A stretch of DNA of 64,000 bases from Fidelibacterota bacterium (GTDB lineage: Bacteria; Fidelibacterota; UBA2242): contig JAUVYH010000001.1 in NCBI GenBank assembly GCA_030603165.1, positions 4,837 through 68,836 of the forward strand, read 5' to 3'. Numbering within the stretch: position 1 is the first letter of the stretch; every line of letters begins with the position of its first letter. The notes beneath the pieces were generated by a model. That model worked only from the letters and a program-made list of their open reading frames with translations, did not search any database and was not told the DNA's origin. A program made the translations under genes and the position numbers. Shown here piece after piece: positions 2,131 to 54,261 of the stretch.

Positions 2131-5100
2131 ATGGACAAAAAATTTATATTAGTTATGCTTCTTTTGCTCTGCATGGTGCAGTACGTTTTTTCCGGAATCA
2201 CCGGTAAAATTGTTGGAAAAGTTACAGATACTGAGAGTGGAGAGCCATTGGTGGGTGCTAATGTTTTTATTAAGGGCACAACCATGGGAGCAGCCACTGA
2301 CTCGAACGGAGATTACTTAATTCTTAACATTCCGCCTGGCGTCTATACATTGGCGGCATCGATGATAGGCAACACAACCGTTAATCAAACTGACGTGTCT
2401 GTGTCTGTAGACCATACTGTTACTGTCGATTTTGCCTTACCACCTACAGTTATAGAGGGTGTGGAGGTTACAGTAGTGGCTGAGAGGAAAGTCATTAAGA
2501 TGGATATGTCTGCCAGTCAAGTCAGTATTAGCGCGTCGGATGTCGTGGAACTTCCCAACGCGACCAGCATTGAAGATGTCATTAATCTTCAAGTAGGGCT
2601 GGATTTTGATCCAACTACCAGAGGATATGATGAACAGGCAGAGGTGACTATCCGAGGGGGTGGAAGAGGACAGAACTCATTTATGGTTGATGGATTAACG
2701 ATGGTGGATAACCGATCAAACAGACCGATGATGATGGTCAATCTTAGCTCTGTAAAGGAAATTAACATCATTAAGGGAGGCTTTAATGCGGAATATGGTA
2801 ATGTTCGATCTGGATTAATTAACGTTGTTACCAAAGAAGGTTCTTCGACTGCATATAATGGTTCGCTTGAACTTCGGATGACCCCTGGCCACCTAAAACA
2901 TGCGGGTGAATCAATCTTTGATCCAAACAGCTACTATTTGCGGCCATATCTTGATCCTGCTGTATGTTGGAATGGTACCGCGAGTGGAAGCTGGGATGAG
3001 GCAACCCAGGCACGATATAATTCCTTTATGGGATGGAATGAATTTGCCAACACGTTAGAAGGTGTGACTCCGCAACAAGCCAGGGATATTTTCATCTGGC
3101 AGCACCGGGCTGAAGGCTCTGATGATCTTGGTCGGGAAGCGGGAAGCTACGGCGATAAGCCGGACTGGATTGCAGAAGCAAGTTTTGGCGGTCCGGTTCC
3201 CTTTATCAGTAAAAAATTAGGCGGCTTGAATTTTTTTGCTACTCATCGGACCAATAATGAACAGTTTGCACTGCCCACTAACAGGGACTACTTTACAGAA
3301 CAGAATTCTCAGTTAAAGCTATGCACTAAAATAACTCCGTCCCTGAAAGTTACGGTCGAGGGAGTATATGGAGAGATTCATACCGTTCAATCTGCTCCGC
3401 GTGGTTCCGGAATGGATGCCTATATGACAAGTGGAATGGATATACTCTATTCCCCAATTGCTACTGGTGATGATTATGTGCTCGGTCAGAACGCTGCTTT
3501 GTATTATCCTTCTGCCCTGAATCTATTCGATATTTATAGGTCTATGGTAGGCATAGCTATTGATCATGTTTTGAGCCCACGTACATTTTATAATGTGAGA
3601 ATCTCTCGGACTCGCGTTAAAAATCTTTGCACTGGTCCGGATAGATTTCGGGACAACACGACCATTCGAACTTTTGGTGACTTTGCCGTTGATGAAACAC
3701 CATTTGGATATCAGGTTGGTATCGAAACCATGTTTGATGGTATGTCTACAACCGGAGAGGGGTCTACCCGGGATTACTCGGAAGTCAATACCGTCAATGT
3801 TAAATTTGATATCACCAGCCAGGTCAACAAATACAATCAGATTAAGTCGGGATTGGAATATAATTATGATGATCTTGATGTTCACTACGAGCACAACCAA
3901 ATAGGTGATGCAGGTAATAACTGGATAGTTAAGTGGAGGAGATATCCGTACCGTGCCAGTATGTATATACAGGACAAACTTGAATTCAAGGGCATGATTG
4001 CCAATGTAGGTTTAAGAGCAGACTTGAATAATCCAAATTCAAAGGCATTCGTAACGGATAGATATTCCATGTATTTCCGGAAAAAATTTATGGATACGTT
4101 TCAAGATTTAGCTCCTTACGAAGATGCTAAAGTGCGCCTGAAACTTAGCCCTCGTTTAGGAATTTCTCATCCAATTACCGAAGATGCCAAACTTTACTTT
4201 AATTATGGTCATTTCTATTCGGTGCCAACATCTAATGAGATGTTTCTCATTATGAAACGGGCTCAAGGGCTTAGTGATATAGGCAATCCCAATGCTGAAT
4301 TAGCAAAAACAGTAGCCTATGAGTTAGGTGTTGAGTACAGTCTCTTAGACATGTTCCTGCTTCATTTGTCCAGCTATTATAAAGACGTCAGCGAACAACT
4401 TGCCAATATCCATTATGTCGGCTATGATGGAGGTGTCAACTATTGGTCTCGTGAAAATAACAATTACGAGGATATTCGAGGATTTGAGGCTAAAATTGAA
4501 AAGCGTTTTGGGGCATGGGTTACCGGATGGGTAAATTATAACTATATGGTGACTACATCCGGATATATTGGACGGCAGACCTATTACGAGGATCAAAGAA
4601 GGCAGGCGCAAGAAGGACTAATGAATCCGGTCCAGAATCGTCCGCTCGCACGTCCTTTAGCCCGCGCTAATATCACCATCACGAGTCCCAATGATTTCGG
4701 GCCGACAGTTGCAGGATTTAATCCAGCTGCTGGTGTCCGGTTAGATTTGCTTTATATCTGGAGAGCCGGTAAGTACGAGTCAATAGGTGATTATAGAATG
4801 TGGAATAAAGTGGGTGATGTCGAATTAATTGATGATTTGCAATGGAAAGGTCGGACCACTTTTGATTTAAGATTACGAAAAAAAATATCTTATATAAAAT
4901 ATGACTTTAGCTTGTATCTGGATATCGCCAATGTGTTTAACATAAAATACCTCGAAGAATCAGGCTTTGCAGACGCTGATGATAGAACCTCTTATATGAG
5001 ATCATTGCACCTGCAGCGGTACAACGGCGACGAGTTTGCGACTAAGGCAGAATATGAGGCTATGGACTGTATTGCCGGCGACGATAAGCCGGGAGACGTA

Positions 5101-5199
5101 AAGTCCGATGATAAACCTTACATAGATATGCCAGACCGCGAATTTCTTACCTATCTGAATCCTCGAACAATTACGTTTGGATTAGGAATTAATTTTTAA
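2131..5199 (+). CDS. TonB-dependent outer-membrane receptor with N-terminal carboxypeptidase-regulatory-like domain and plug domain
   Basis: Signal peptide; 'GKIVGKVTDTESGEPLVGANVFIKGTTMGAATDSNGDYLI' (CarbopepD_reg-like); plug region '...VTIRGGG..FMVDGLTM...'; C-terminal aromatic residue (..LGINF); 1022 aa; SD gagaggag upstream. Confidence 0.85.
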   Translation: MDKKFILVMLLLLCMVQYVFSGITGKIVGKVTDTESGEPLVGANVFIKGTTMGAATDSNGDYLILNIPPGVYTLAASMIGNTTVNQTDVSVSVDHTVTVDFALPPTVIEGVEVTVVAERKVIKMDMSASQVSISASDVVELPNATSIEDVINLQVGLDFDPTTRGYDEQAEVTIRGGGRGQNSFMVDGLTMVDNRSNRPMMMVNLSSVKEINIIKGGFNAEYGNVRSGLINVVTKEGSSTAYNGSLELRMTPGHLKHAGESIFDPNSYYLRPYLDPAVCWNGTASGSWDEATQARYNSFMGWNEFANTLEGVTPQQARDIFIWQHRAEGSDDLGREAGSYGDKPDWIAEASFGGPVPFISKKLGGLNFFATHRTNNEQFALPTNRDYFTEQNSQLKLCTKITPSLKVTVEGVYGEIHTVQSAPRGSGMDAYMTSGMDILYSPIATGDDYVLGQNAALYYPSALNLFDIYRSMVGIAIDHVLSPRTFYNVRISRTRVKNLCTGPDRFRDNTTIRTFGDFAVDETPFGYQVGIETMFDGMSTTGEGSTRDYSEVNTVNVKFDITSQVNKYNQIKSGLEYNYDDLDVHYEHNQIGDAGNNWIVKWRRYPYRASMYIQDKLEFKGMIANVGLRADLNNPNSKAFVTDRYSMYFRKKFMDTFQDLAPYEDAKVRLKLSPRLGISHPITEDAKLYFNYGHFYSVPTSNEMFLIMKRAQGLSDIGNPNAELAKTVAYELGVEYSLLDMFLLHLSSYYKDVSEQLANIHYVGYDGGVNYWSRENNNYEDIRGFEAKIEKRFGAWVTGWVNYNYMVTTSGYIGRQTYYEDQRRQAQEGLMNPVQNRPLARPLARANITITSPNDFGPTVAGFNPAAGVRLDLLYIWRAGKYESIGDYRMWNKVGDVELIDDLQWKGRTTFDLRLRKKISYIKYDFSLYLDIANVFNIKYLEESGFADADDRTSYMRSLHLQRYNGDEFATKAEYEAMDCIAGDDKPGDVKSDDKPYIDMPDREFLTYLNPRTITFGLGINF

Positions 5200-5237
5200 T
5201 TAGGTGAAAACTAAATAGAGAAGGAAGGAATACAATT

Positions 5238-7445
5238 ATGAAAAGAAATTATTTAATAATAGAACTTCTGCTAACATGTTTCCTATTTTCGTATAATATT
5301 GTATACGCGGGTTTCACCAAGAATATACAAGTTGGGAGTTATCAGACATTTGTCGATGACAATACCCATCAGGGTGAAACCTCAGTAGGCGATCGTGGTG
5401 CTATGTATCAGAATGCTTTTCACTGGGGTTGGCCTGCCTGTGCGGTACAGTTTTCAGGGTGGTACCTGGGCGCCAAAAACTGGACAGCAGAAGATGGAGA
5501 CGTATGGCCTGTGAAGCTCACTGGTGCGGCACCTGTCACGGTAAATGAGTTGCAAGCCCAGATGCCGGTAGCAGATGAGGACGGATATTTTATCAGAAAA
5601 TATGTGAGATATCGACCTCCCACGGTTGTCGTCGATGGCTTCGAAACAAATGAGCCGTTTCCATTGGAAGGTGATGAAGTCGCTCCCGATAAGATCCCGG
5701 GAACGGCAGATGTCATGGTAACATCAACAATTAATACCGATATGGGAGTCACGATAACTCAAAAAGTACTTGCCTGGAGCCAAAAAAATCACGATGATTA
5801 TATCATCTATGATTGGACATTCACCAACACGGGAAATATCGATCTGGATGAGGAAATTGAACTTCCAAATCAGACATTAGAAGGCGTTTACTTTCTCCGA
5901 TCAAGCAGGCTCGAACGATGGGATTCAGAATATTGGTATAGCGGTTTCGGGGAATATACAACAGATACGCTACGGATGCGCTATGCCTATCCAGCGAGGA
6001 GAAAAGGTGCGGACCATGATAATACCGGAAATGGTTTCTGGGCGCCACAACCGGGCTGGCTTTGGAATTCGCAGTCTGTCGGTCAGGCTATACTTCATGT
6101 TGATAAATCTGTGGACGATCCAACAGATGACTTTGATCAACCGGGTATGACCGGCACAGAGAATAGCGACCTTCTCTGGATTCGAAATGATCCTACCTCC
6201 ACCGGTCCCGCGGATTGGGCTCAGGTATATAAAGTAATGACAGAAGGATGGGTATGGCGAGGCAATGTACCCCGACTCACACAAGACAATGCCCCCGCCG
6301 GGATGACAGTACGCTCCGGATACCGTTCAGTGAGAATGCAGGATCTTGCCGTGCCTGGCACGAAATTTATTTTGGATCTCGACTGGGTTACCTACGGCGC
6401 CGCATATTTTTGGGATGCCGGTCCATACACGATGAAACCCGGGGATTCGTTCCGGATCGTCTGGGCGGATGGATTTGGAGTCATCAATCCGCTGAAAATC
6501 TGGGAAATTCAGGGAGCATGGGAACAGGGAACAGCCACACCACCTGAAGGGATGACATTTGACAATGCTACTGGAGTTGGTTTGCTTGATAACATGCCGC
6601 CCCCCTATAAAAATAATCCTGACCTGTATGATAATGATTATAATAACTGGTCCAGGGATTGTTGGATTTTTACAGGTATTGATTCTCTCATTCAAAATAT
6701 GAATGCCGCCCAGTGGAACGTGAGAAACAATTATAACGTGCCAATCCCGCCGCCGCCGCCATCAGTTACCGTCAGTTCAAAACCGAACCAGATCGTGATT
6801 GAGTGGGGTAATGAATCAGAAGCAGCGTCGGATTTTGCCGGTTACAGATTATATCGATCCGAAGGTTTCTGGTATGAAGGGCATATTCCATGGACTAATG
6901 AGACAAGGCATGGTAGGTGGGAACTTATTAGGGACTTTCATGGTAGCAGTACTCACAGTTATGAGGATACGGACGTGACCCGTGGTCTTGCCTATTACTA
7001 TTACGTAACCGCCTATGATGATGGTGAGAGCAATGGACCTGATGTCAATGGACAGAATCAAGTTCTTGAGAGTGGTGCTTTTCTAAATGTAACAAAACGC
7101 GCTGCATATCTAACCAGAGATGCAGGAAGCAAACTCGAAAATATTGTTGTCGTACCCAATCCATTTAATATTAGCGCTATAGATCTGCAATATCCAGGTG
7201 AGCCAAACAAAATAATGTTTTTGGAATTGCCCCCGGTTTGTACCATCAGGATTTACACCGAGAGTGGTGATTTAGTGAGAACCATTGAACATACCAACGG
7301 TTCCGGTGATGAAGCATGGGGCGTATTGGCGAATGAACACCTCGCCTCTGAAATAGGGCAGCTGGTCGTGAGTGGTATTTATATTGCCAACATTGAAACG
7401 CCGGACGGCGATAGCATCAATCGTAAAATCGTGATCGTAAGGTAA
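5238..7445 (+). CDS. T9SS-secreted surface protein: unknown ~480-aa N-terminal region, poly-Pro linker, FN3-like domain, type-A T9SS C-terminal sorting domain
   Basis: Signal peptide; 'PPPPPS' linker; FN3-like 'IVIEWGN...GYRLYRSEG...YYYYVTAYD'. C-terminus 'VVPNPFN...IRIYTESGDLV...SGIYIANIETPDG...RKIVIVR' matches the Por secretion tail pattern. Confidence 0.65.
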   Translation: MKRNYLIIELLLTCFLFSYNIVYAGFTKNIQVGSYQTFVDDNTHQGETSVGDRGAMYQNAFHWGWPACAVQFSGWYLGAKNWTAEDGDVWPVKLTGAAPVTVNELQAQMPVADEDGYFIRKYVRYRPPTVVVDGFETNEPFPLEGDEVAPDKIPGTADVMVTSTINTDMGVTITQKVLAWSQKNHDDYIIYDWTFTNTGNIDLDEEIELPNQTLEGVYFLRSSRLERWDSEYWYSGFGEYTTDTLRMRYAYPARRKGADHDNTGNGFWAPQPGWLWNSQSVGQAILHVDKSVDDPTDDFDQPGMTGTENSDLLWIRNDPTSTGPADWAQVYKVMTEGWVWRGNVPRLTQDNAPAGMTVRSGYRSVRMQDLAVPGTKFILDLDWVTYGAAYFWDAGPYTMKPGDSFRIVWADGFGVINPLKIWEIQGAWEQGTATPPEGMTFDNATGVGLLDNMPPPYKNNPDLYDNDYNNWSRDCWIFTGIDSLIQNMNAAQWNVRNNYNVPIPPPPPSVTVSSKPNQIVIEWGNESEAASDFAGYRLYRSEGFWYEGHIPWTNETRHGRWELIRDFHGSSTHSYEDTDVTRGLAYYYYVTAYDDGESNGPDVNGQNQVLESGAFLNVTKRAAYLTRDAGSKLENIVVVPNPFNISAIDLQYPGEPNKIMFLELPPVCTIRIYTESGDLVRTIEHTNGSGDEAWGVLANEHLASEIGQLVVSGIYIANIETPDGDSINRKIVIVR

Positions 7446-45149: not shown

Positions 45150-45225
45150 AAATAAATCAAAATAATAATCTGTGCGTATCTGTGAAAATCCGTGGAGAAA
45201 AAAAAAGAAAAGGAGATATATAAAG

Positions 45226-46247
45226 TGAACTACACAAAATCACTAAAAGGTAAACACCTTATCACAACACAGGATTGGGGAAAAGAAGAACTGGATATTG
45301 TTCTTAAGCTTGCAAAGGAAATGAAGGAAAACCGCTTTCATCATCCGTTATGTAAATCACTGGAGAATAAAAGTTTCTTTATGTTTTTCTACAATCCCTC
45401 GGTAAGGACCCGGCAATCTTTTGAGATAGCGGCTACCGAGTTAGGCGGACACGCCCTGTTTTTAGAGCCAAAATCCATGCGGCTTAAAACGGCAACATCA
45501 GCGGGAGAAACAATTGAAGACGCCGCCAAAGTAATGTCAAGATATGCCTGTGGTCTGGGCATCAGAATACTCGAGGATAAAATTCCGCATTATGGCGCCG
45601 GCGAAGACCTGATTCGGGAATATGCGCAGTATTCAACTATTCCAATCGTGTCCATGGCGCATGATAAATATCATCCATGTCAGGGGCTGGCTGATATAAT
45701 GGGAATTCAAGGGCATTTGGGCGAGCTTAAAGGTAAAAAGACGTTACTGACATGGGGACATGGCGCTCTTGCCCGGTCGTGGTGTTCGGTTCAGGAATAC
45801 CTGCTAATGGCTTCGAGATATGGGATGTCCATTAATCTTGCGCATCCTGAAGGTTATGATTTGGATCCGCAAGTAATCGAGCAGACAAAAAAGAATTGTG
45901 AACAGAATTCAGAAGAATTTAATATCACAAATGACGTGCAAGAGGGATATAAGGACGTCGATGTTGTCTATTCAAGAAACTGGATGAGTCCCCAGGCTTA
46001 TAGGGATGGTCAATTGCATAAAGAGCCGGAGATTGAAAAAGCATTACAGTTCAATGAATGGATATGTGATGCGGAAAAAATGAGATTAACAAATGACGCT
46101 TTATACATTCATCCGATGCCTGTTGACCGGGGCAATGAAGTTACGGATGAGGTCGCGTCAAGCCCTCATTCGATTATATACGATGTTGCCGAAAACAGAC
46201 TGCATGTTCAGAAAGCGGTGATGGCGTTGACAATGGGTGAATATTAA
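45226..46247 (+). CDS. ygeW: YgeW-like knotted carbamoyltransferase (OTCase/ATCase fold), paralog 1
   Basis: 'SVRTRQSFE' (STRTR-type carbamoyl-phosphate motif), 'KYHPCQGLAD' (HPxQ), 'INLAHPEGYDLDP'. GTG 45226 has SD aaggag; the ORF track start is 45192. Confidence 0.75.
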
Positions 46248-46276
46248 AAACATTAGCAAGATTCAGGGAGATTAAT

Positions 46277-47359
46277 ATGACAGTTAAAAGAATAAGAATA
46301 TTTGCGTTAGGCGGGAATGAAATATCCCCGGTTGACATTAAAGATAAAGATGGGAACTCTGTAAGCGCCGATATACCGATGCAGTGGCAAAGGACAGCGG
46401 ATACATGTAAGGAAATAGCCAATATTATCGAGGAGTTTCCGGAAGATTCTTTTATAATCATACATGGCAACGGTCCGCAGGTGGGAAATATTTTATTAAG
46501 AGCCGAACACTCTTTGGATATTTTACCACCGCTGCCTTTAGATATATGTGGGGCTGACAGCCAGGGCGCAATAGGTTATATGATAGGACAGCTTTTAAAT
46601 AATGAGCTGAGAGCGAGGAATATCAAGAGAGGCGTTGATACTATTGTAACGCAAGTAGTCGTTGATAAAAACGATCCCAATTTTAAAGACCCGAACAAGT
46701 TCATCGGACCTGCATTTACGAAAGAAGAAGCCTTCGAGCGTAAAGAAAAAGCCGGCTGGATTGTGAAACTTTATAAAAAAGATTCACACGGAAATGATAT
46801 ATGGCGGAGAGTTGTACCCTCTCCTCAACCCATAGATGTTGTTGAACTTGATCTGGTTCAATCGGCATTAGAAAAGGGAATTATTCCTATTACTGTCGGC
46901 GGCGGCGGCATTCCGGTAGTAGAAGTTGAAGCAAATAAAGAAGGTGTTTATAAGTGTAATTATAACATCGACTATAAAAACAATAATAATCCGAAAATAT
47001 TTATGGGTGTTGAAGCTGTCATTGATAAAGACCTTGCATCGGCGCTTATTGGAACATTATTGAGACAGAGATATAAACAATGCGGCGAGGATATTGAGGT
47101 AATAATGACAATTTTTACGGCAGAAGACGGAGCAAAGTTGAATTATCAAATGCCCGATGAAAAAAATCTGAGATTGGCTACTGTTGAAGAATTAAAAAGA
47201 TACTATAAAGAAGGTCATTTCCCGCCCGGCAGTATGGGACCCAAAATCAAAGCCATTATTAATTTTATGGAAAACGGCGGTGAGAAAGCCTATATCTCGC
47301 TGACTACGAAATATAAACAAACCATCAAGGGTGAAGCCGGAACAACTGTTGTTAAATAG
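46277..47359 (+). CDS. arcC: Carbamate kinase
   Basis: 'IFALGGNEI', 'IIIHGNGPQVGNILL', 'DSQGAIGYMIGQ', 'VVPSPQP', 'ITVGGGGIPVV', 'VIDKDLASAL', 'GSMGPKI' all align to E. coli ArcC/YqeA; carries a low-complexity insertion (KNNNNPK). Confidence 0.85.
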   Translation: MTVKRIRIFALGGNEISPVDIKDKDGNSVSADIPMQWQRTADTCKEIANIIEEFPEDSFIIIHGNGPQVGNILLRAEHSLDILPPLPLDICGADSQGAIGYMIGQLLNNELRARNIKRGVDTIVTQVVVDKNDPNFKDPNKFIGPAFTKEEAFERKEKAGWIVKLYKKDSHGNDIWRRVVPSPQPIDVVELDLVQSALEKGIIPITVGGGGIPVVEVEANKEGVYKCNYNIDYKNNNNPKIFMGVEAVIDKDLASALIGTLLRQRYKQCGEDIEVIMTIFTAEDGAKLNYQMPDEKNLRLATVEELKRYYKEGHFPPGSMGPKIKAIINFMENGGEKAYISLTTKYKQTIKGEAGTTVVK

Positions 47360-47479
47360 TAAAAAGGAACGAAGCCGTAAGTAATTTTGCTTTTAAGAGA
47401 ACGTAAAAATTCTATCTTATGAAAAAATATTATAAATAGCAGATTAGAGTTAGTAAATGATAAAATAGTAGGAGAACAC

Positions 47480-48556
47480 ATGAAGACAAACAAATTTTTA
47501 GGAAGAGACTGGATTGACGCCGAATTGGATTACACCAAAGAGGAATGGGAAACATTAATTGATATGGCGCTTTATTTGAAACGCCGTCATGCCATGAATG
47601 ATGATCAAAGCAATATTCTAAAGGGCAAAACTTTATTCTCTATGTTTTTCAATCAATCGCTGAGAACTCGCAGCACTTTTGCGGCGGGAATTCAGCAGTT
47701 GGGTGGAATTTATGTAGATCTGGAGCCAGGGAAGACATATACTCCGGCAAGAAAAGGTTTTGATATTCCGTATAAAACCGAGAGAATTTCTGATGTAGCC
47801 GGAATGTTGAGCCGGGTTGGGGACGCCATCGCCATACGCATGTACGGTCCCCCGGCTTATTGGATATATGGATTTGCTAATGCTTTAATAAAAGAATTTG
47901 CCGAATATGCCGACATTCCTATAATCAATATGGAATGTGATAAATACCATCCGACCCAGGCTCTGGCGGACCTCATTACTATCAAAGAAAAATTTGGAAC
48001 GTTTAAGGATGTGAACCTCACAATGTCCTGGGCATATTCCGGTTCTATCGAAAAACCGCGAGCCGTGCCTCAAAGCGTCATCCTGGCGGCGACTAAAATG
48101 GGTATGAACGTGACGCTGGCTCATCCGAAAGGATTTGATTTGGATCCTGAAATCATTAAAGCAAGTCAGCAATTTTCTGAGCAGACAAACGGTTCACTCC
48201 GGATAACCAATGACTTCGAAGAAGGCTTTAAGGGCGCGGACATTGTCTATCCTAAATCCTGGGGTGCCGTACCCTGCTTCAATTACACAGATGAAAGTGG
48301 TAATACCATTAAAGAGCAAAACCATGATGAAGCAGAAAGATTGAACAGTGCCAGCAAAAACTGGAAGACTACCGAGAAGGAAATGCGATTAATTAATAAG
48401 AATGGCATTTATATGCACTGTTTGCCGGCAGATAGAGGACAGGAAGTGACTGACGAAGTGATTGACGGACCCAGTTCGGTCGTTATTGATGAAGCGGAAA
48501 ACAGGCTGCACGCTCATAAAGCGATCATGGCCATGATTATGGGGGGACGACTGTAG
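47480..48556 (+). CDS. ygeW: YgeW-like knotted carbamoyltransferase, paralog 2 (closest to E. coli YgeW)
   Basis: 'SLRTRSTF', 'DKYHPTQALADL', 'VTLAHPKGFDLDPE', 'ADIVYPKSW', 'YMHCLPAD', 'AIMAMIMG' are near-identical to E. coli YgeW blocks. Confidence 0.8.
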   Translation: MKTNKFLGRDWIDAELDYTKEEWETLIDMALYLKRRHAMNDDQSNILKGKTLFSMFFNQSLRTRSTFAAGIQQLGGIYVDLEPGKTYTPARKGFDIPYKTERISDVAGMLSRVGDAIAIRMYGPPAYWIYGFANALIKEFAEYADIPIINMECDKYHPTQALADLITIKEKFGTFKDVNLTMSWAYSGSIEKPRAVPQSVILAATKMGMNVTLAHPKGFDLDPEIIKASQQFSEQTNGSLRITNDFEEGFKGADIVYPKSWGAVPCFNYTDESGNTIKEQNHDEAERLNSASKNWKTTEKEMRLINKNGIYMHCLPADRGQEVTDEVIDGPSSVVIDEAENRLHAHKAIMAMIMGGRL

Positions 48557-48579
48557 GATTGTAGATTGATGATTTATGA

Positions 48580-48850
48580 TTTTTAGTAAGAAAAGTTTAT
48601 GAATTTTAATTACCAATGCTCCGAATGCGGCCGGGAATATGACATTACCGCCGAATTGATGCTTTGTCCGGAATGTAGTAAATTACAGTAACCGGATAAA
48701 CCGCTGCGAGGTATTCTGGAAGTTGCTTTTGACGGTTATTTTCATCATCAACCCAAGATGTCCGACCTGCTGCCGGTTGAGACATTATAACTGCCAATGT
48801 GTAGCGGTTTCCGATTAGGCGATTATGGCTATGATTATGGGAAAACGTCT
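48580..48850 (+). repeat. Diverged duplicate of the ygeW2-3'end / thrC-like-5'end junction (in swapped order)
   Basis: 48597..48790 is ~85% identical to 50395..50600 and encodes 'MNFNYQCSECGREYDITAELMLCPECSKLQ*PDKPLRGILEVAFDGYFHHQPK' with an in-frame TAA. 48800..48850 'gcgattatggctatgattatgggaaaacgtctttaa' copies the ygeW2 3' end 'gcgatcatggccatgattatggggggacgactgtag'. Confidence 0.7.
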
Positions 48851-49032
48851 TTAATAAAAGAATTGGGTCTGACTTTGATTAGGTTGTTGACAAATATCCC
48901 TGACTATTCTGCAATATGATACTTGAATAACCCTGACAATTATGCAGGAATATTAAAATATATCCTTTACAATTCGACATGTATCCTGTATATTCTGATG
49001 AAGTGAAAACTTAGGACGAAAAATATTTTTAC

Positions 49033-50397
49033 ATGATTGATCGAACGATTCTAAAAGATTTGCGTAAGTGGGCAATTTCAAATCCCCGGAAACCGCTGAT
49101 TTTGCGAGGCGCCCGTCAAGTTGGTAAAACAACTGTGGTTGATATATTTTCAAAGGAATTTGATCAATATATCTATTTAAATCTGGAAAAGGATTTTGAT
49201 ACAGAGTTTTTTAAAAGAAAACTCCCGGCAAGAGAGGTTCTTCAGGCAATTGCGATTGACAAAGGGGTAAATATCACAGCAGGTCGGACACTTATCTTTC
49301 TGGATGAAATCCAAAATTCGGCTGAAGCAGTGACAATGCTGCGTTATTTTTTTGAAGATACTCCGGAATATTTTTTCATTGCCGCCGGTAGTTTGTTAGA
49401 AATAATGCTGGAAAATAAAAAGATAAGTTTTCCGGTAGGCAGAGTAACATACTTGTATATGTATCCGTTAACATTTAATGAATTTACAAAGGCAGTTGGG
49501 GAAAAACAGGCTCTGAAATATCTATTTCAGATACCCTGTCCGGAATTTGCGAATTTCAAATTATATAAACTGTTTCATCTCTATACATTAGTTGGTGGAA
49601 TGCCGGAAGTTGTGAGTAAATATATCGAGACACAGGATATCGTATCGTTAGGGTCGGTCTATAAAGATTTGATAACCGCTTACATCAATGATGCCGGTAA
49701 ATATGCTCGTACGAAGCAATTTGCGCATATATTGCGTTATGCAATTGAATCAGTTCCTTTTGAAGCCGGTCGTCGAATCAAATTCGAGGGATTTCATCAG
49801 TCAAATTATCGATACCGGGAAATGGCGGAGTCAATGCGGAGCCTCGAACGGGCGATGTTGATCCGGATTATATATCCCACAACATCTGTTAAACCGCCAT
49901 TAATACCCGATTATCGAAAATCACCGCGTTTACAATATCTGGATACGGGGTTATTGAATTTTCAGGTCCAATTGCAGAAATATTTTTACCAGTATAATGA
50001 TCTACATGCCTTCTATCAGGGAATTCTCGCGGAACACATTGCTTATCAAGAGATTATCGGTACAGATAATAGTGCAGATTCAAAACCGGCTTTTTGGGTG
50101 AGGGAAAAGCGCCAGTCCAATGCGGAAGTGGATTATTTGCTTCAATATAAAAATTTACTGATCCCGGTTGAAATTAAAGCCGGGAAAAGCGGAACACTTC
50201 GGTCGCTGCATCAATTCGTCGACGCTGCCGACCACAATTATGCTATTCGTCTTTACGCCGGGTCATTGAAAATTGAAAAGACAAAGACTTTATCCGGAAA
50301 ATCTTTTATACTATTAAATTTACCATATTTTTTAGCAGGTCAGTTAAACAATTACGCTGATTGGTTTGTCAAACAAAATAACAAAAAAGAAAGTTGA
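49033..50397 (+). CDS. AAA-family ATPase with DUF4143 C-terminal domain (AAA_14/DUF4143 'orphan ATPase')
   Basis: Walker A 'LRGARQVGKTT', Walker B 'LIFLDEIQ'; 454 aa; stop overlaps the TTG/ATG start region of the next gene. Confidence 0.75.
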   Translation: MIDRTILKDLRKWAISNPRKPLILRGARQVGKTTVVDIFSKEFDQYIYLNLEKDFDTEFFKRKLPAREVLQAIAIDKGVNITAGRTLIFLDEIQNSAEAVTMLRYFFEDTPEYFFIAAGSLLEIMLENKKISFPVGRVTYLYMYPLTFNEFTKAVGEKQALKYLFQIPCPEFANFKLYKLFHLYTLVGGMPEVVSKYIETQDIVSLGSVYKDLITAYINDAGKYARTKQFAHILRYAIESVPFEAGRRIKFEGFHQSNYRYREMAESMRSLERAMLIRIIYPTTSVKPPLIPDYRKSPRLQYLDTGLLNFQVQLQKYFYQYNDLHAFYQGILAEHIAYQEIIGTDNSADSKPAFWVREKRQSNAEVDYLLQYKNLLIPVEIKAGKSGTLRSLHQFVDAADHNYAIRLYAGSLKIEKTKTLSGKSFILLNLPYFLAGQLNNYADWFVKQNNKKES

Positions 50398-50408
50398 TTT
50401 TTAGTCAA

Positions 50409-51587
50409 ATGATCGAATTTACCTACCAATGTTCCGAATGTGGTCTTGAATACAATATCACAGCGGATATAATGGTCTGTCCGGTATGCAGCAAACTGCA
50501 GGAACCGGATAAACCGCTGCGAGGTATTCTGGAAGTTATTTTTGACGGTCACTTTCATCATCAACCCAAGACGTCCGATCTGCTGCCGGTTGAGGCAGAA
50601 TACTTTCCAAAAATTCCCGTCGGCAGGACACCGCTTTGGATACCGGCAAATATTGCCGACGAACTGGGTTTTCCGAATCTCTATATCAAGGATGATACTC
50701 ACAATTTGACCGGCTCTTTAAAAGACCGCGCTTCCTATCTTGTGGCAGCTTTTGCGAAAAGAGAAGGAATCAGGGAAATTGTCGTGGCGTCCACCGGAAA
50801 TGCCGCTTCCTCTATGGCGGGGGTTGGCGCTGCCGCGGGATTAAATATTACGATTTTCTTACCTGAATCCGCGCCCAGGGCTAAAATGGTTCAGTCGCTG
50901 CAATACGGCGCTAATGTGATTTTGGTTGCCGGAAATTATGACAGGGCTTTTGATCTTTCCCTTGAATTTTCGAGAAAATCAAAAAATGTTCTCAGCCGCA
51001 ACACCGCTTACAATCCCTTGACAATTGAAGGGAAAAAGACCGTTTCCCTGGAAATCTATCAAACCTTGAAACGGTCGCCGGATTTTGTTTTTGTTCCTAC
51101 CGGAGACGGCGTCATCCTTGGCGGCGTTTATAAAGGGTTCCGGGATTTTCAAAAGCTGGGATTTCTCGATAAAATTCCAACGATTGTAGCAGTACAAGCC
51201 GAAGGCAGCAACGCTATTGCAAAAGCGTTTAAAAAAGGTGACTTTACCGAAATCGACGCGCATACGGTTGCCGATTCGATTTCTGTGGGCATTCCCCGCA
51301 ACGGCTATTACGCTTTGAAGCAACTCAAACAATATAATGGTAAATGTGTGACGGTTTCGGACGAAGAAATACTTATTGCCCAAAAAGAATTGTCCTCAAA
51401 AGCCGGACTGTTCACCGAACCGGCGGCGGCGGCGTCCTACGCAGGATTTCTGAATATGAAGGCTAAAATCCCCAATGACGCTACAATCATACTGCTGGCT
51501 ACGGGCAACGGCTTGAAGGATATTGATTCTGCTATAAAAAGCGTTGAATTTCCTAAAAAAGCCATCTCCTCTCTGGAGGAGCTGTGA
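50409..51587 (+). CDS. Threonine synthase family (archaeal/short type, fold-type II PLP) with N-terminal Cys4 zinc ribbon
   Basis: 'YQCSECGLEYNITADIMVCPVCSKL...GILEVIFD' zinc ribbon as in archaeal-type ThrC; 'NLTGSLKDRAS' (PLP-Lys), 'ASTGNAASS', 'NPLTIEGKKT'. The ORF track start 50394 is TTG; ATG 50409 is supported by the duplicate copy. Confidence 0.7.
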   Translation: MIEFTYQCSECGLEYNITADIMVCPVCSKLQEPDKPLRGILEVIFDGHFHHQPKTSDLLPVEAEYFPKIPVGRTPLWIPANIADELGFPNLYIKDDTHNLTGSLKDRASYLVAAFAKREGIREIVVASTGNAASSMAGVGAAAGLNITIFLPESAPRAKMVQSLQYGANVILVAGNYDRAFDLSLEFSRKSKNVLSRNTAYNPLTIEGKKTVSLEIYQTLKRSPDFVFVPTGDGVILGGVYKGFRDFQKLGFLDKIPTIVAVQAEGSNAIAKAFKKGDFTEIDAHTVADSISVGIPRNGYYALKQLKQYNGKCVTVSDEEILIAQKELSSKAGLFTEPAAAASYAGFLNMKAKIPNDATIILLATGNGLKDIDSAIKSVEFPKKAISSLEEL

Positions 51588-52165
51588 GCGGAACGGAAGG
51601 CGTTATTCTTGCGGCGGGATTTTCCGAACGAGCCGGGCAATTCAAAATGACATTGCCGATAGGCGATAAGACGATACTTGAAAAGTGTATAGAAGGAATG
51701 ACCTCAGTTTGTGACCGCATAATAGTGGTTGGCGGTTACAATTACGATAAAATCAAAAAAATTGTCGCTGATATTCCAAACGTTGAATTCTGCTATAATA
51801 AAAACTACGAAGCGGGAATGTTCACGTCTGTAAAAAGGGGAATCCGTGAGATAAAGGCAGAGCGCTTTTTCATCATTCCGGGCGATCAGCCGCTGGTAAA
51901 ACCGGAAACCTATCGAAAACTTTTGAGCATTGACGCCGATATCGTCATCCCCCGCTTCAATGGCAAAAAGGGTCACCCGGTCTTATTCGCCAGCCATCAC
52001 ATTCCGGAAATCCTGGCGATGCCGGATACAGCGATTTTACGGGATTTTATTCATAGTAAAGAAGCAACAATAGTGGATGTCGATGATCCGGGCGTCGGTC
52101 TGGATGTGGACAGTCCTGAAGATTATGAAAAAATCAAAGTTTATTTTCAAGAGGAAATGCTGTGA
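51584..52165 (+). CDS. mocA: MobA-like NTP transferase, probable molybdenum cofactor cytidylyltransferase
   Basis: 'GVILAAGFSERAG' and 'IIPGDQPLV' MobA/MocA motifs; 193 aa; GTG start overlapping the upstream stop. Confidence 0.7.
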   Translation: MSGTEGVILAAGFSERAGQFKMTLPIGDKTILEKCIEGMTSVCDRIIVVGGYNYDKIKKIVADIPNVEFCYNKNYEAGMFTSVKRGIREIKAERFFIIPGDQPLVKPETYRKLLSIDADIVIPRFNGKKGHPVLFASHHIPEILAMPDTAILRDFIHSKEATIVDVDDPGVGLDVDSPEDYEKIKVYFQEEML

Positions 52166-54261
52166 AAGATTCTATCAGCAAACCCATTACCCGTGTCGAT
52201 GCGCCGGCTAAAATAAGCGGCGCTGCGAAATATATCGGCGATATACATTTTGAAAACCAGCTATTTGCAAAAACGGTAAGAAGCGACAAACCCAAGGCTA
52301 AAATAGTATCAATAAAAACACCGTCACTCCCCGATGGCTATTATATCATCGATAAAAATGACATTCCCGGCATAAACCGGATGCGCACGGTGGTTTCGGA
52401 CCATCCCATTTTTGCCGATGACGAAGTTAATTATATCGGGCAGCCGATTCTGTTGGTTGTCGGTCCCGAGCGGGAAAAGATTTATGAGATTGTTTCCCAA
52501 ATAAAAATCGAATACAAAGACGAATCAGCGGTTTTCAGCATCGAGGAAGCGGAAGAAAAGGGAACCGTTTTTACAGAATACAGTTATTCCAAGGGTGAAC
52601 CGGAAGCAGCATTTCACGATGCGGTAAAGATTATCGAAGACGAATACCATACCGGGTTGCAGGAGCATGTCTATCTGGAACCCCAGGGAATTACCGGCGA
52701 GTATAAAGACGAAACGATGTTTATTTACGGCTCCATGCAATGTCCGTTTTACGTGAAAGGCGCCATTCAGGACGTTCTTGGATGGGATTCAGACCGTATC
52801 CGCATTATTCAATCAATCACCGGCGGCGCATTCGGCGGCAAGGAGGAATTTCCATCATTAATGGCTTGCCAGGTAGCAGTGGCTTCGTTAAAAACGAAAC
52901 GTCCCGTTCAAATGATCTACGACCGGGATGAAGATATTATCTGCTCAACCAAACGCCACCCGTCAATTGTTCATTATAAAGCAGGTCTTGGTAAAAGCAA
53001 CCAAGTTATTGTCCTGAACATTGATATAATATTCGACGCCGGCGCCTATTCGGAATTATCTCCGGTGGTGCTTCAACGAGGAATGTTTTCGGCAACCGGG
53101 GTGTATAATTTTCCCCATCTCAGCGTGCGGGGCAGAAATTTCATGACCAATAACGTGCCTTCAGGCGCTTACCGGGGATTCGGCGCACCCCAGACCATTT
53201 TCGGCACGGAAATGCTCATGCACAATATCGCTGTAAAATTGGGCGTCGATCCATTGAAATATAAAATTAATCATTTGATAAAACGAGGCGATCCGACCTG
53301 TACCGGCGGAAAGATTCGGGATGAAGTGAAACTCCTGGAAATCATAGAAAAGGTTGAGAAAATGTCCGGGTACCGCCGAAAAATTGAACGGCGCAAAAAA
53401 TTCAAAGGTATCGGCGTATCGCTGTTCCTCCACGGCTGCGGCTTCACCGGGAAGGGCGAAGCGACCATTAAGGGAAAAATTATCCTTAAGAAAAACGGTG
53501 ATACTGTGATCCTGAAAGTGTCCAGTGTGGAAATGGGTCAGGGTGCTGAAACCTGTCTCAGAAAGATCGTCGCTCATACGCTTTCACTGCCGATGGAAAA
53601 GGTTATCTGCGAAACCATTGACACCGGGTTGATTCCCGATTCCGGTCCCACCGTCGCTTCCCGAACGACCATGATCGTCGGTGGATTGCTACGCCAAGCC
53701 AGCCTGGAGTTGAAAGATTGTTGGAACGAGGCGAATGAAATCGAAATCTCTAAGACCTATAAACATCCTGATTTTCTTAGTTGGGATGATGATAAATTCG
53801 TAGGCGACGCCTACCCAACTTACTCGTGGGGCGCCAATGTGGCGGAAGTGGAAATCGATTCGCTCACCTATGAAATCAATGTAAAAAAGATATCAGCGGT
53901 GTATGATGTAGGCGTTCCAATCGATGAAAAAATGCTCAGGGGGCAGATGCAGGGCGGCATTGTCCAGAGCATCGGCTGGGCGACCATTGAGGTAATGAAT
54001 TCATCAAAGGGCAAACTGGCGCAGCACAACCTGACGGATTACAAAATCCCCACATCCATGGACGTACCGGAAATTGCGTGTAAATTTATCGAAAACCCCT
54101 ATGAATTCGGTCCTTTCGGAGCTAAATGCGCCGGTGAATTACCTTCTGCGGGTGCGCCACCGGCAGTAGCCGCAGCCGTCTCCAATGCGTTAGGTATTCC
54201 AATTAAATCAATACCGCTGACGCCTGAATATCTCATGGAGATAGATAAACATGAAGATTGA
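52162..54261 (+). CDS. Molybdenum hydroxylase large subunit, second paralog (XdhD-like)
   Basis: 699 aa; 'TGGAFGGKEE' Mo-site motif, 'FGAKCAGELPSAGAPPAVAAAVSNAL' C-terminal motif; GTG start overlapping the mocA stop. Confidence 0.85.
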   Translation: MKDSISKPITRVDAPAKISGAAKYIGDIHFENQLFAKTVRSDKPKAKIVSIKTPSLPDGYYIIDKNDIPGINRMRTVVSDHPIFADDEVNYIGQPILLVVGPEREKIYEIVSQIKIEYKDESAVFSIEEAEEKGTVFTEYSYSKGEPEAAFHDAVKIIEDEYHTGLQEHVYLEPQGITGEYKDETMFIYGSMQCPFYVKGAIQDVLGWDSDRIRIIQSITGGAFGGKEEFPSLMACQVAVASLKTKRPVQMIYDRDEDIICSTKRHPSIVHYKAGLGKSNQVIVLNIDIIFDAGAYSELSPVVLQRGMFSATGVYNFPHLSVRGRNFMTNNVPSGAYRGFGAPQTIFGTEMLMHNIAVKLGVDPLKYKINHLIKRGDPTCTGGKIRDEVKLLEIIEKVEKMSGYRRKIERRKKFKGIGVSLFLHGCGFTGKGEATIKGKIILKKNGDTVILKVSSVEMGQGAETCLRKIVAHTLSLPMEKVICETIDTGLIPDSGPTVASRTTMIVGGLLRQASLELKDCWNEANEIEISKTYKHPDFLSWDDDKFVGDAYPTYSWGANVAEVEIDSLTYEINVKKISAVYDVGVPIDEKMLRGQMQGGIVQSIGWATIEVMNSSKGKLAQHNLTDYKIPTSMDVPEIACKFIENPYEFGPFGAKCAGELPSAGAPPAVAAAVSNALGIPIKSIPLTPEYLMEIDKHED

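Follow-up and report, generated by a model that had tools for sequence, protein, structure and literature searches.

The window analysed here, a stretch of 64,000 nucleotides, comes from an uncultured Neomarinimicrobiota bacterium of a recombining population, and carries between two intact metabolic genes a single ATPase gene preceded by remnants of both neighbours, laid out as follows:

47480–48556, forward strand: ygeW2, an intact OTC/ATC-family carbamoyltransferase of 358 aa (Pfam OTCace_N + OTCace)
48557–48598, no strand: IG1, the ygeW2–thrC spacer native to the ATPase-free haplotype
48599–48797, forward strand: B', a thrC-like 5' stub of ~66 codons, a pseudogene fragment (repeat search, tblastn)
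48798–48811, no strand: putative illegitimate joint of ~14 nt
48812–48854, forward strand: A', the last ~13 codons of ygeW2 and a TAA stop, of the ATPase-bearing haplotype type
48866–48997, forward strand: direct repeats spaced at 33 and 33 nt, with the core CCCTGACWATTMTGCA at 48898, 48931 and 48964
49033–50397, forward strand: ATPase X2, 454 aa, AAA_14 + DUF4143 (Pfam, PADLOC)
50409–51587, forward strand: thrC-like PLP enzyme, intact, 392 aa (PALP; just above the TIGR00260 cut-off)

The genes on both sides remain full length, as an earlier note on this DNA had stated. The ygeW2 product reaches neither the YgeW nor the AOTCase cut-off of NCBIfam and is 97% identical in amino acids to its L002 and L003 counterparts; the last ~150–290 nt of the gene, TAG stop included, lean towards the allele of the ATPase-free ('empty') haplotype represented by L071 and L072. 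The thrC-like protein, with an N-terminal CxxC..CxxC zinc ribbon, aligns with its orthologues over residues 1–392, and its gene leads a thrC-mobA-xdh block. Its ATG at 50409 is conserved among orthologues and lies 11 nt downstream of the ATPase stop (TGA, 50395–50397); the overlap of stop and start described in the earlier note involves only a mechanically called TTG. The neighbours of the ATPase gene encode carbamoyltransferases, carbamate kinase, the PLP enzyme, MobA and xanthine-dehydrogenase-type proteins, with no defence genes adjoining. An exact-sequence look-up of the window's ATPase and thrC returned no record.

X2 matches AAA_14 (4e-26) and DUF4143 (1e-13) in Pfam, the latter listed as a PD-(D/E)xK family (PMC3424549), and aligns over residues 1–447 with positions 1–446 of 448 in the PADLOC PDC-S01 profile PDLC04788 (E = 4.9e-170); G31-K32-T33, D91-E92, E365, D367, E380 and K382 are invariant in 40 homologues. 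An AF2 model (pLDDT 89) comprises AAA+, helical, winged-helix-like and alpha-beta-beta-beta-alpha-beta parts, for which a fold search returned generic AAA+ matches (best 2qen, Orc1/Cdc6, RFC and STAND) and a PDB sequence search with X2 gave no match. X2 is 58% identical to the same-slot ATPases of relatives and 58–59% to the nearest other sampled cluster, and its single further close relative comes from a contig of 1.5 kb; judged by sequence, it represents a new allele of PDC-S01, a candidate defence gene listed by PADLOC. Two homologues (L031, L068) stand among toxin–antitoxin genes. One PDC-S01 homologue, assayed in E. coli, fell outside the four protective systems, and the family is a candidate awaiting validation (PMC12988326).

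Weaker repeat copies flank the three cores upstream of X2, and 33 is the top autocorrelation lag; exact matches to the core in the 64 kb occur only within this array, and similar arrays lie 5' of the ATPase in relatives and in other taxa. The array is the upstream region of the cassette itself. A sigma-70 scan predicts one promoter, a 10/12 match at 48966–48994, inside the array, and an Rfam scan of 48400–50600 gave one sub-threshold chance match and no structured element. The GC content of the cassette (0.37–0.41) is only slightly under that of its flanks (0.42–0.48) and is thus not diagnostic. The cassette is self-contained, consisting of the repeat array and a gene of predicted AAA+/winged-helix/PD-(D/E)xK architecture from the candidate anti-phage family PDC-S01.

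The two gene fragments reported 5' of the ATPase are real, being recovered by repeat search and tblastn and shared with L001, a locus from a different metagenome-assembled genome (MAG) that is ~94% identical and has the same layout with indels of its own; their order (ygeW2-end, thrC-start', ygeW2-end', ATPase, thrC-start) is also as the note gave it. In the repeat search, 48605–48797 pairs with 50418–50610 over 193 nt at 81% ungapped identity with 0 indels; tblastn with the thrC-like protein matches 48599–48784 (77% aa, E = 1e-28), and the likeness extends into ~14 nt of 5' leader (TGATTTTTAGT). The ~85% identity first given for this copy falls within the method-dependent range of 81–85%, but the fragment is strongly mosaic along its length, matching the window's thrC start (B) at 72% in its 5' half and 93% in its 3' half. 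The in-frame TAA described for it (48689–48691) is the sole stop in B' and is window-specific, L001 lacking it. A' pairs 48814–48853 with 48516–48555 (40 nt, 78%; repeat search) and reads in frame AIMAMIMGKRL*, its stop (48852–48854) lining up with that of ygeW2. Taken alone, A' has little statistical weight (E = 0.024 within the window for its 23-nt core); it is corroborated by the same position in the independent assembly L001, where a 12-nt deletion indicates that it is decaying. No further copy of either fragment, and no ATPase paralogue, was found within the 64-kb window.

The two sides of the joint point to different haplotypes. IG1 is collinear with the L071 and L072 spacers (TAGGATTGTAGATT..TTAGTAAGAAAAGTTTATG) and has no counterpart in ATPase-bearing loci, whereas A' (GCTATGATTATGGGA, with GCTATG and the TAA stop) is of the L002/L003/L075 type and not the L071/L072 type, and is followed directly by repeats and then the ATPase, as in L002, L003 and L075. 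The intervening 48798–48811 fits neither parent in a three-way comparison with the thrC and ygeW2 registers and diverges between the window and L001; in place of a clean microhomology, of which none was found at this joint, there are ~14 unassignable nt, which may be either filler or decayed sequence.

A direct OTC/ygeW2–thrC junction, which the earlier note proposed to look for in relatives, exists at L045, L071, L072 and many OTC3-type loci. In the metagenomic loci L071 and L072, which lack an ATPase, ygeW2 is followed by the window's short spacer and then by a complete thrC-like gene (391 aa) beginning MNFNYQCSECGREYDITAELMLCPECSKLQEPD, the B' sequence; positions 46711–48765 of the window align contiguously with L071 1–2064 at 90.7%. 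Conversely, at least 11 loci (L002, L003, L044, L048, L075, L004, L028 and L038–41) bear the ATPase without any duplicate, the layout in L002, L003, L044, L048 and L075 being ygeW2, 33-nt repeats, PDC-S01 ATPase and thrC-like gene. Those duplicate-free relatives whose flanks nearly equal the window's (97% in ygeW2 and 86–93% in thrC at the amino acid level) are 58% identical to it in the ATPase. Between the haplotype types, ygeW2 is ~93% identical in nucleotides and the thrC classes are ~71–77% identical. Among relatives the slot is either empty or filled by one of at least three allele classes (X1, X2, X3). The X1 copies of L002 and L004 agree at 95%, against 76.5% for thrC, and the two loci have different paralogues upstream. 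None of the sampled loci showed X2 without the scar. Empty and occupied haplotypes are found together in metagenomes, and at L042 two PDC-S01 cassettes are separated by a thrC' (47 codons)::OTC' (28 codons) joint with a 7-nt microhomology, TTGACGG, common to both parents; this joint is independent of the window's.

The window is itself mixed. Its ygeW2/CK region at ~47.0–48.3 kb is 94–96% identical to the occupied type versus 86–94% to L071, and for at least 4 kb the downstream genes are of the occupied-relative class, at ~71–73% to the empty type. A switch from occupied to empty is placed at 48268–48424, with a marginal max-chi2 permutation result (p = 0.04–0.06, parent L002/L003); with L044 as parent the best breakpoint lies elsewhere, in CK at ~47.0 kb. 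Further empty-like patches occur in CK and make the window a mosaic, so that a direction of transfer can be named only tentatively.

B' is likewise a chimera, joining an empty-haplotype allele to sequence like the resident thrC. Its 5' half matches L071 (94%) better than the resident thrC (72%), and its 3' half the resident thrC (93%) better than L071 (74%); the 5' half and the spacer are together collinear, at 94% identity, with the functional thrC allele of empty haplotypes, and the N-terminus agrees with the full-length proteins P0143 and P0148. The allele switch lies at ~48690, beside a 35-nt identical block common to B and B'. A word-filtered protein search with the B' peptide returned two proteins, one of them the L042 fusion ORF. 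The differences between B' and B fall 9/6/19 over the three codon positions (dS 0.72, dN 0.09, dN/dS 0.12), a ratio inside the span seen for functional orthologue pairs (0.05–0.29), which indicates that B' diverged as a working gene elsewhere. Over a patch of ~50 nt, the L001 B' is all but identical to B of the window, so that gene conversion between the copies is directly visible.

These data bear on several accounts of the duplicates. The earlier note proposed a tandem duplication of the ygeW2/thrC junction into which the mobile ATPase gene landed. Spelled out, a junction of ~270 nt would have been doubled in place, the gene would have entered the second copy and the inner copies would have decayed to ~80%, a history with which the fragment order and the variable presence of the ATPase among relatives would agree. 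In-situ tandem duplication is nevertheless contradicted and now appears very improbable: the dN/dS of 0.12 compares with ~0.5 or more expected under neutral drift of one copy, whose own branch should show a ratio near 1 as well as indels; the 193 nt are free of indels, yet two indels and a stop have arisen there within the ~4% divergence of the window from L001; B' with its spacer corresponds to the distinct functional allele of L071 and L072, and A' to another ygeW2 allele type; at least 11 loci are occupied without duplicates; and a target-site duplication is missing, the longest word common to the cassette ends, the A-rich AAAAGAA, being equalled or beaten in 130 of 500 shuffles. The short direct repeats suggested for those ends likewise yielded nothing significant. 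A site-specific or transpositional element, a unit of 1.5–1.8 kb with the repeated fragments as att sites or ends, might draw on the 35-nt identical core in B and B' and on the PD-(D/E)xK nuclease domain of the ATPase; it is still less credible, given that the ATPase is the single ORF in the unit, with no recombinase ORF in 48.5–50.4 kb and no integrase or transposase, that the repeat search found no terminal inverted repeats and there is no significant flanking direct repeat, that the 'repeat' holds an upstream-gene stub in swapped order and not an att recombination product, and that cassette edges in relatives fall on the neighbours' stop and start codons. The insertion footprint once seen here holds in that the fragments mark the meeting of ATPase-free and ATPase-bearing arrangements, but it comes with neither a recombinase gene nor a jump-in duplication. 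Equally hard to credit is a metagenome assembly chimera of co-occurring strains: both haplotype types do co-exist in metagenomes, but no k-mer-length sequence is common to the two sides of the joint, and the joint recurs in L001, an independent MAG, where substitutions and indels set it apart, which argues that the structure is not an assembly artefact.

By these comparisons the window combines an empty with an occupied haplotype through an illegitimate joining, 48557–48854 being the recombination scar. The course of events that we favour, at about even chances, has the ATPase side resident and gene conversion following; the event fits homology-facilitated illegitimate recombination (HFIR) combined with gene conversion between the copies, and a resident ATPase side is weakly favoured. 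The left parent, empty as in L071 and L072, would have been kept to ~nt 200 of its thrC, and the right, occupied parent would begin ~43 nt ahead of its ygeW2 end; from such a joining, both stubs remain in swapped order and one full ygeW2 and one full thrC survive. With the ATPase already on the chromosome, a fragment of roughly half a kilobase would have been taken up from a relative lacking the gene and exchanged homologously, at its left end, within ygeW2. The right end, in a thrC allele ~71–77% identical, would not have paired and would instead have been joined illegitimately just 5' of the cassette, in effect an aborted swap of the cassette for the empty allele. The functional thrC may later have homogenised the 3' half of the stub by gene conversion, and the stubs would be decaying at present. 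The Class-I-like 3' half of B' is what demands an extra step in this account, whether gene conversion or an earlier cassette array.

The opposite polarity, possible in our view though unlikely, would have an ATPase-free chromosome gain a long fragment (ygeW2 tail, repeats, X2, thrC-mobA-xdh and further), joined illegitimately at its left end in the resident thrC and homologously at its right end far downstream; the scar would then be the footprint of the ATPase's arrival, without tandem duplication. The final structure would be identical, B' retains its native leader, start and spacer, L042 resembles a cassette added beside a resident one, and X2 is an outlier allele (58% to all other ATPases) beside flanks that elsewhere bear X1, from which it follows that X2 did arrive at some point. 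Against it, the upstream ygeW2/CK region is nearer the occupied type than L071 over ~1.3 kb and the downstream genes are of the occupied class as described; with occupied-like flanks on both sides, a long import, a further upstream replacement and gene conversion of B' would all be needed. More doubtful is a two-cassette array (ygeW2, cassette, thrC'::ygeW2', X2, thrC), formed by tandem duplication or an L042-like addition, that lost its upstream cassette through double homologous recombination with an empty fragment, with one crossover in ygeW2 and the other in the conserved thrC block at nt ~90. Such a history would explain the B' chimera, with its switch beside the 35-nt block, without gene conversion, and two-cassette arrays do occur (L042); no X2-containing array was found, however, and since L001 offers independent evidence of B/B' gene conversion, the additional array step is unneeded.

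The data show the duplicates, their collinearity with each of the two haplotypes, the purifying selection under which B' diverged and the lack of hallmarks of a transposon or integrase; the HFIR mechanism, the direction of transfer and a defence function we infer. HFIR, for which PMC5361080 cites de Vries & Wackernagel 2002, Prudhomme et al. 2002 and Meier & Wackernagel 2003, has been tested in E. coli, where single-crossover products duplicate 109–950 bp of the anchor (PMC3240628), and the model has been proposed for orphan-gene arrays at Vibrio T6SS loci (PMC5361080). As there, one end is conserved here (ygeW2), the other (thrC) is too diverged, the joint is non-homologous and short duplicated stubs are retained, with the L042 joint and its microhomology as a parallel; both parental layouts of an HFIR-type event, diverged relatives with one conserved anchor, have been recovered in nature. 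In contrast to the experimental case, the event is read here from natural haplotypes only, the window's joint contains the unassignable ~14 nt, and it may be that the empty allele was what came in, so that an aborted deletion resulted in place of gene gain. T6SS effector–immunity and Rhs/CDI orphan arrays, explained by sequential displacement (PMC5361080), similarly have variable cassettes between conserved flanks, neighbour-gene leftovers that mark successive recombinations and heterogeneous cassette arrays (compare L042); here, however, single PDC-S01 genes sit in a metabolic carbamoyltransferase/xanthine-dehydrogenase-type cluster, and the stubs derive from housekeeping-type flanking genes, not cassette genes. 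X2 itself resembles PDC-S01 (COG1373) in its full-length HMM match, two domains and conserved Walker A/B and PD-(D/E)xK residues, and departs from it in its distance from the nearest sampled cluster and its place in a metabolic operon, not a defence island. At defence-gene hotspots between core genes, alleles turn over by flanking homologous recombination. The slot, with X1, X2, X3 or nothing, behaves alike; it differs in holding a single gene, with no mobile-element genes, and in being seen only in metagenome-assembled Neomarinimicrobiota.

A more speculative and improbable idea is that the PDC-S01 protein recognises its own 33-nt-spaced repeats and acts on incoming or empty-allele DNA, so that replacement attempts end as illegitimate joints, which would make the gene a selfish defence element of addiction- or homing-like type, resistant to curing through recombination. 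Period and core of the repeats persist across phyla and vary together with the ATPase allele, and on this idea two independent thrC'::OTC' scars (window/L001 and L042) would be accounted for.

The kind of event is ordinary and its resolution unusually good: the locus is a clean natural example, from an uncultured marine phylum, of a single-gene defence-type cassette kept, swapped or lost between metabolic genes, and the recovery of both parental haplotypes from metagenomes is uncommon for such scars. The conserved 33-nt-spaced repeat array 5' of the gene offers a lead on the very common, uncharacterised PDC-S01 family. If the favoured polarity is true, the scar would record how an empty allele began to 'cure' the chromosome of an accessory gene and failed because the flanking gene was too diverged to recombine, and divergence of the flanks would be a mechanism by which accessory genes are retained.

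The ATPase gene of the window belongs to a metabolic operon and not to a defence island, and is separated from the intact gene upstream by 476 nt of non-coding DNA that holds truncated copies of both neighbours:

47480-48556: ygeW2, intact OTC-family carbamoyltransferase
48599-48797: B', stub of a thrC-like 5' end
48812-48854: A', stub of a ygeW2 3' end
49033-50397: AAA_14 and DUF4143 ATPase, 454 aa
50409-51587: thrC-like PLP enzyme, intact, with its ATG at 50409

Both stubs, described in the earlier note, were recovered by repeat search and are real: the thrC copy aligns ungapped over 193 nt at 81% identity (48605-48797 with 50418-50610), and the ygeW2 copy over 40 nt at 78% (48814-48853 with 48516-48555). 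B' has its own ATG at 48599 and an in-frame TAA at 48689-48691 (tblastn E = 1e-28), and A' retains frame and stop (AIMAMIMGKRL*, TAA 48852-48854). The overlap of the ATPase stop with the thrC start, also noted there, concerns only a mechanically called TTG, which the TGA (50395-50397) overlaps; the ortholog-conserved ATG is 50409.

Scanning genome contigs with the thrC-like protein, which placed the window in Candidatus Neomarinimicrobiota (Marinimicrobia), returned 30 loci, a metagenome scan added 24, and exact-protein look-ups yielded further loci; mapping the window's proteins onto this collection defined five architectures (loci are numbered L001 onwards):

(i) ygeW2, ATPase, thrC, no fragments: L002, L003, L044, L048, L075
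(ii) OTC3 (43% to ygeW2), ATPase, thrC: L004, L028, L038-41
(iii) OTC3 and thrC directly joined: many loci, with upstream repeats but no ATPase in L007, L047 and L059
(iv) ygeW2 and thrC directly joined: L045, L071, L072
(v) the window layout with both fragments: L001 only, ~94% identical over 2.1 kb

The L001 scar, from an independent MAG, bears changes of its own: its spacer has gained 14 nt, its A' has lost 12 nt, and the TAA is absent. This excludes an assembly artefact and shows the fragments to be in decay. At 843-1034 of L001 the B' stub is still an open 63-codon ORF, which GenBank lists as a hypothetical protein (P0121) and which could supply a stand-alone zinc-ribbon peptide expressed from the native thrC leader.

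The observation of the earlier note thus stands, although its mechanism, a tandem duplication of the gene junction followed by ATPase insertion, is not upheld: in architectures (i) and (ii) the ATPase is present without any duplicate, an arrangement that the earlier note itself named as refuting its proposal, and B' diverged as a functional allele. Compared with the start of the resident thrC, B' has 9/6/19 differences at the three codon positions, and the Nei-Gojobori estimates (dS 0.72, dN 0.09) give a ratio of 0.12, where functional orthologues range from 0.05 to 0.29. Drift of one copy as a pseudogene would give a ratio near 0.5 and many indels, of which the 193 nt contain none; the scar itself gained two indels and a stop within the ~4% divergence of window and L001. 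Local duplication and decay is contradicted by this ratio and the indel-free alignment, and B' had therefore already diverged as a functional allele before it was reduced to a stub.

Among the N-termini of 120 thrC-like homologues, two full-length proteins of 391 aa (P0143 and P0148) were singled out, which begin MNFNY(Q/K)CSECGREY, the B' sequence. Their contigs (L071, L072/73) carry ygeW2, a spacer of 35-51 nt that corresponds to that of the window (TAGGATTGTAGATT...TTAGTAAGAAAAGTTTATG), and thrC, with no ATPase. Window positions 46711-48765 align contiguously with 1-2064 of L071 at 90.7%, and B' in its 5' half shares 94% identity with L071 against 72% with the window's own thrC. A', with its TAA stop and GCTATGATTATGGGA, reads as in ATPase-bearing relatives and is followed directly by a repeat array and the ATPase, as in L002, L003 and L075. 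This collinearity with both haplotypes identifies the window as the empty haplotype to about nt 200 of thrC, then the occupied haplotype from nt -43 of ygeW2; the ~14 nt at the joint (48798-48811) match neither parent. Over its 3' half (48691-48781), B' matches the window's thrC at 93% and L071 at 74%, probably through later gene conversion. In L001, B' carries a further patch of ~50 nt that hardly differs from the thrC allele of the window, making gene conversion from functional thrC to stub directly visible. Alternatively, the 3' half might descend from an earlier two-cassette array that lost its upstream cassette when it recombined in the ordinary way with an empty allele.

The hallmarks of a mobile element were sought at the same locus. 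The short direct repeats expected at the insert ends reduce to AAAAGAA, which is at chance level (130 of 500 shuffles did as well or better); a repeat search found no terminal inverted repeats of the cassette, the window ORFs and a domain search no recombinase, an Rfam scan no element at the locus, and the 64-kb window holds no paralogue of the ATPase or the fragments elsewhere.

As to which side was incoming, the window between ~47.0 and 48.3 kb is 94-96% identical to occupied-type relatives versus 86-94% to L071, and over the last ~200 nt of ygeW2 the order is reversed (93% to L071 versus 90%). Sites separating L071 and L072 (empty type) from L002, L003 and L044 (occupied type) are both occupied-type before 48290 and thereafter seven empty-type, three occupied-type and one other. 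A maximum chi-squared breakpoint falls at 48268-48424 (p = 0.04-0.06) when L002 or L003 represents the occupied-type parent; taking L044 instead moves the best breakpoint to the upstream carbamate kinase gene at ~47.0 kb. A ~0.5-kb empty-type patch within an occupied-type chromosome is weakly favoured by these alignments; the ATPase would then be resident and the scar an aborted replacement by an incoming empty allele, the second homologous crossover having presumably been prevented because the thrC alleles (71-77% nt) were too diverged. The ATPase side may instead have been the incoming DNA, which would reverse the polarity.

A second junction scar is present in L042 (2159-2386, ORF P0122, and 2491-3237), where ygeW2, repeats and an ATPase of the X1 type are followed by the 75-aa P0122 and then by another PDC-S01 ATPase, which belongs to a different subfamily (PDLC04790). 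In P0122, 47 N-terminal thrC codons are fused in frame to the final 28 codons of a gene of the OTC3 type at a 7-nt microhomology, TTGACGG, that both parental sequences contain. This scar is independent of that in the window; its breakpoints and OTC paralogue differ, and such joints therefore recur at the slot. Upstream modules (ygeW1-carbamate kinase-ygeW2 or M20-OTC3) and downstream thrC classes occur in all four combinations, marking the OTC/thrC junction as a general reassortment point. Three OTC-family paralogue types (ygeW1, ygeW2 and OTC3; 35-43% identical) are found upstream of thrC, and all three stay below the NCBIfam cut-offs for YgeW, OTCase and AOTCase (window 45192-48556; L004-L011). 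Within the operon, window 51856-52255 (the 3' part of a mobA-like gene and the start of an xdh-like gene) falls to 62-80% identity to L001, against 92-98% in adjoining 100-nt windows, and so forms a further recombination mosaic with sharp edges.

The ATPase has long occupied the OTC/thrC slot, and its alleles have turned over there. In architectures (i) and (ii) the ATPases, termed X1, are 58-59% identical to that of the window, X2, and the flanks are much closer (ygeW2 97% aa, thrC 83-93%). Between L002 and L004, X1 is 95% identical, although thrC is 76.5% identical and different paralogues stand upstream; in L028 the ATPase (69%) and thrC (67%) are about equally diverged. X2 has a single close relative, on a 1.5-kb contig, all others, including proteins of Thermodesulfobacteriota, Acidobacteriota and Spirochaetota, being at most 59% identical. 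In L032-L037 (~3160-5365), fragments of M20 peptidase and OTC genes precede the ATPase and its repeat array, with a sigma-54 activator downstream and not thrC; here the cassette persists while the surrounding cluster is broken up. The Thermodesulfobacteriota contig L031 (2569-5356) carries tandem AAA_14/DUF4143 genes (356 and 451 aa) near a PemK toxin gene and an rve-family transposase.

The window's ATPase is a full-length match to PADLOC PDC-S01 (E = 4.9e-170), and GKT, DE and E365/D367/E380/K382 are invariant in 40 homologues. In the AlphaFold model (pLDDT 89), the first two thirds resemble the P. abyssi Walker ATPase 2qen, Orc1/Cdc6, RFC and STAND NTPases, and the C-terminal part forms an alpha/beta nuclease-like domain; DUF4143 has been assigned to PD-(D/E)xK (PMC3424549). 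By analogy with the family, the protein is likely an ATP-dependent, DNA-binding nuclease switch. PDC-S01 is described as the fourth commonest defence candidate in prokaryotes and as still unvalidated (PMC12988326), the one homologue tested in E. coli being absent from the protective systems; a candidate defence role is plausible but unproven.

Upstream of every X1 or X2 gene in the Neomarinimicrobiota loci lie three to four direct repeats at exact 33-nt spacing, lag 33 being the top autocorrelation in all these regions, and related, recognisable arrays precede homologues in other taxa:

Window, 48866-48997
L002, 2866-2964
L028, 3066-3181
L032, 3895-3993
L069 (other taxa), 2899-2985
L068 (other taxa), 2910-2990
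L031 (other taxa), 3905-3990

The window's core, CCCTGACWATTMTGCA, lies at 48898, 48931 and 48964 and occurs exactly only at the array within the 64 kb; that of X1 (TTGCCYTGACTTTGTTACA) differs, and the core thus co-varies with the protein, a pattern which suggests a putative operator recognised by the cassette's own product. The OTC3-thrC spacer (~100 nt) of L007 (5893-6000), L047 (6131-6235) and L059 (5268-5372) retains 33-nt repeat motifs and no ATPase ORF; either the ORF was precisely deleted, or the repeats are able to exist alone.

In its anatomy the scar matches a product of homology-facilitated illegitimate recombination, or else one of a single crossover in which anchor sequence is duplicated (PMC3240628). 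It is also similar to the arrays of orphan fragments that have been proposed at T6SS and Rhs loci (PMC5361080). The event is of an ordinary kind, and the ATPase adds a new allele to a candidate family already known. The interest of the locus is moderate and lies in a reconstruction of unusual completeness, which includes the two parental haplotypes and a further, independent scar, and in the 33-nt repeat array as a lead for PDC-S01.
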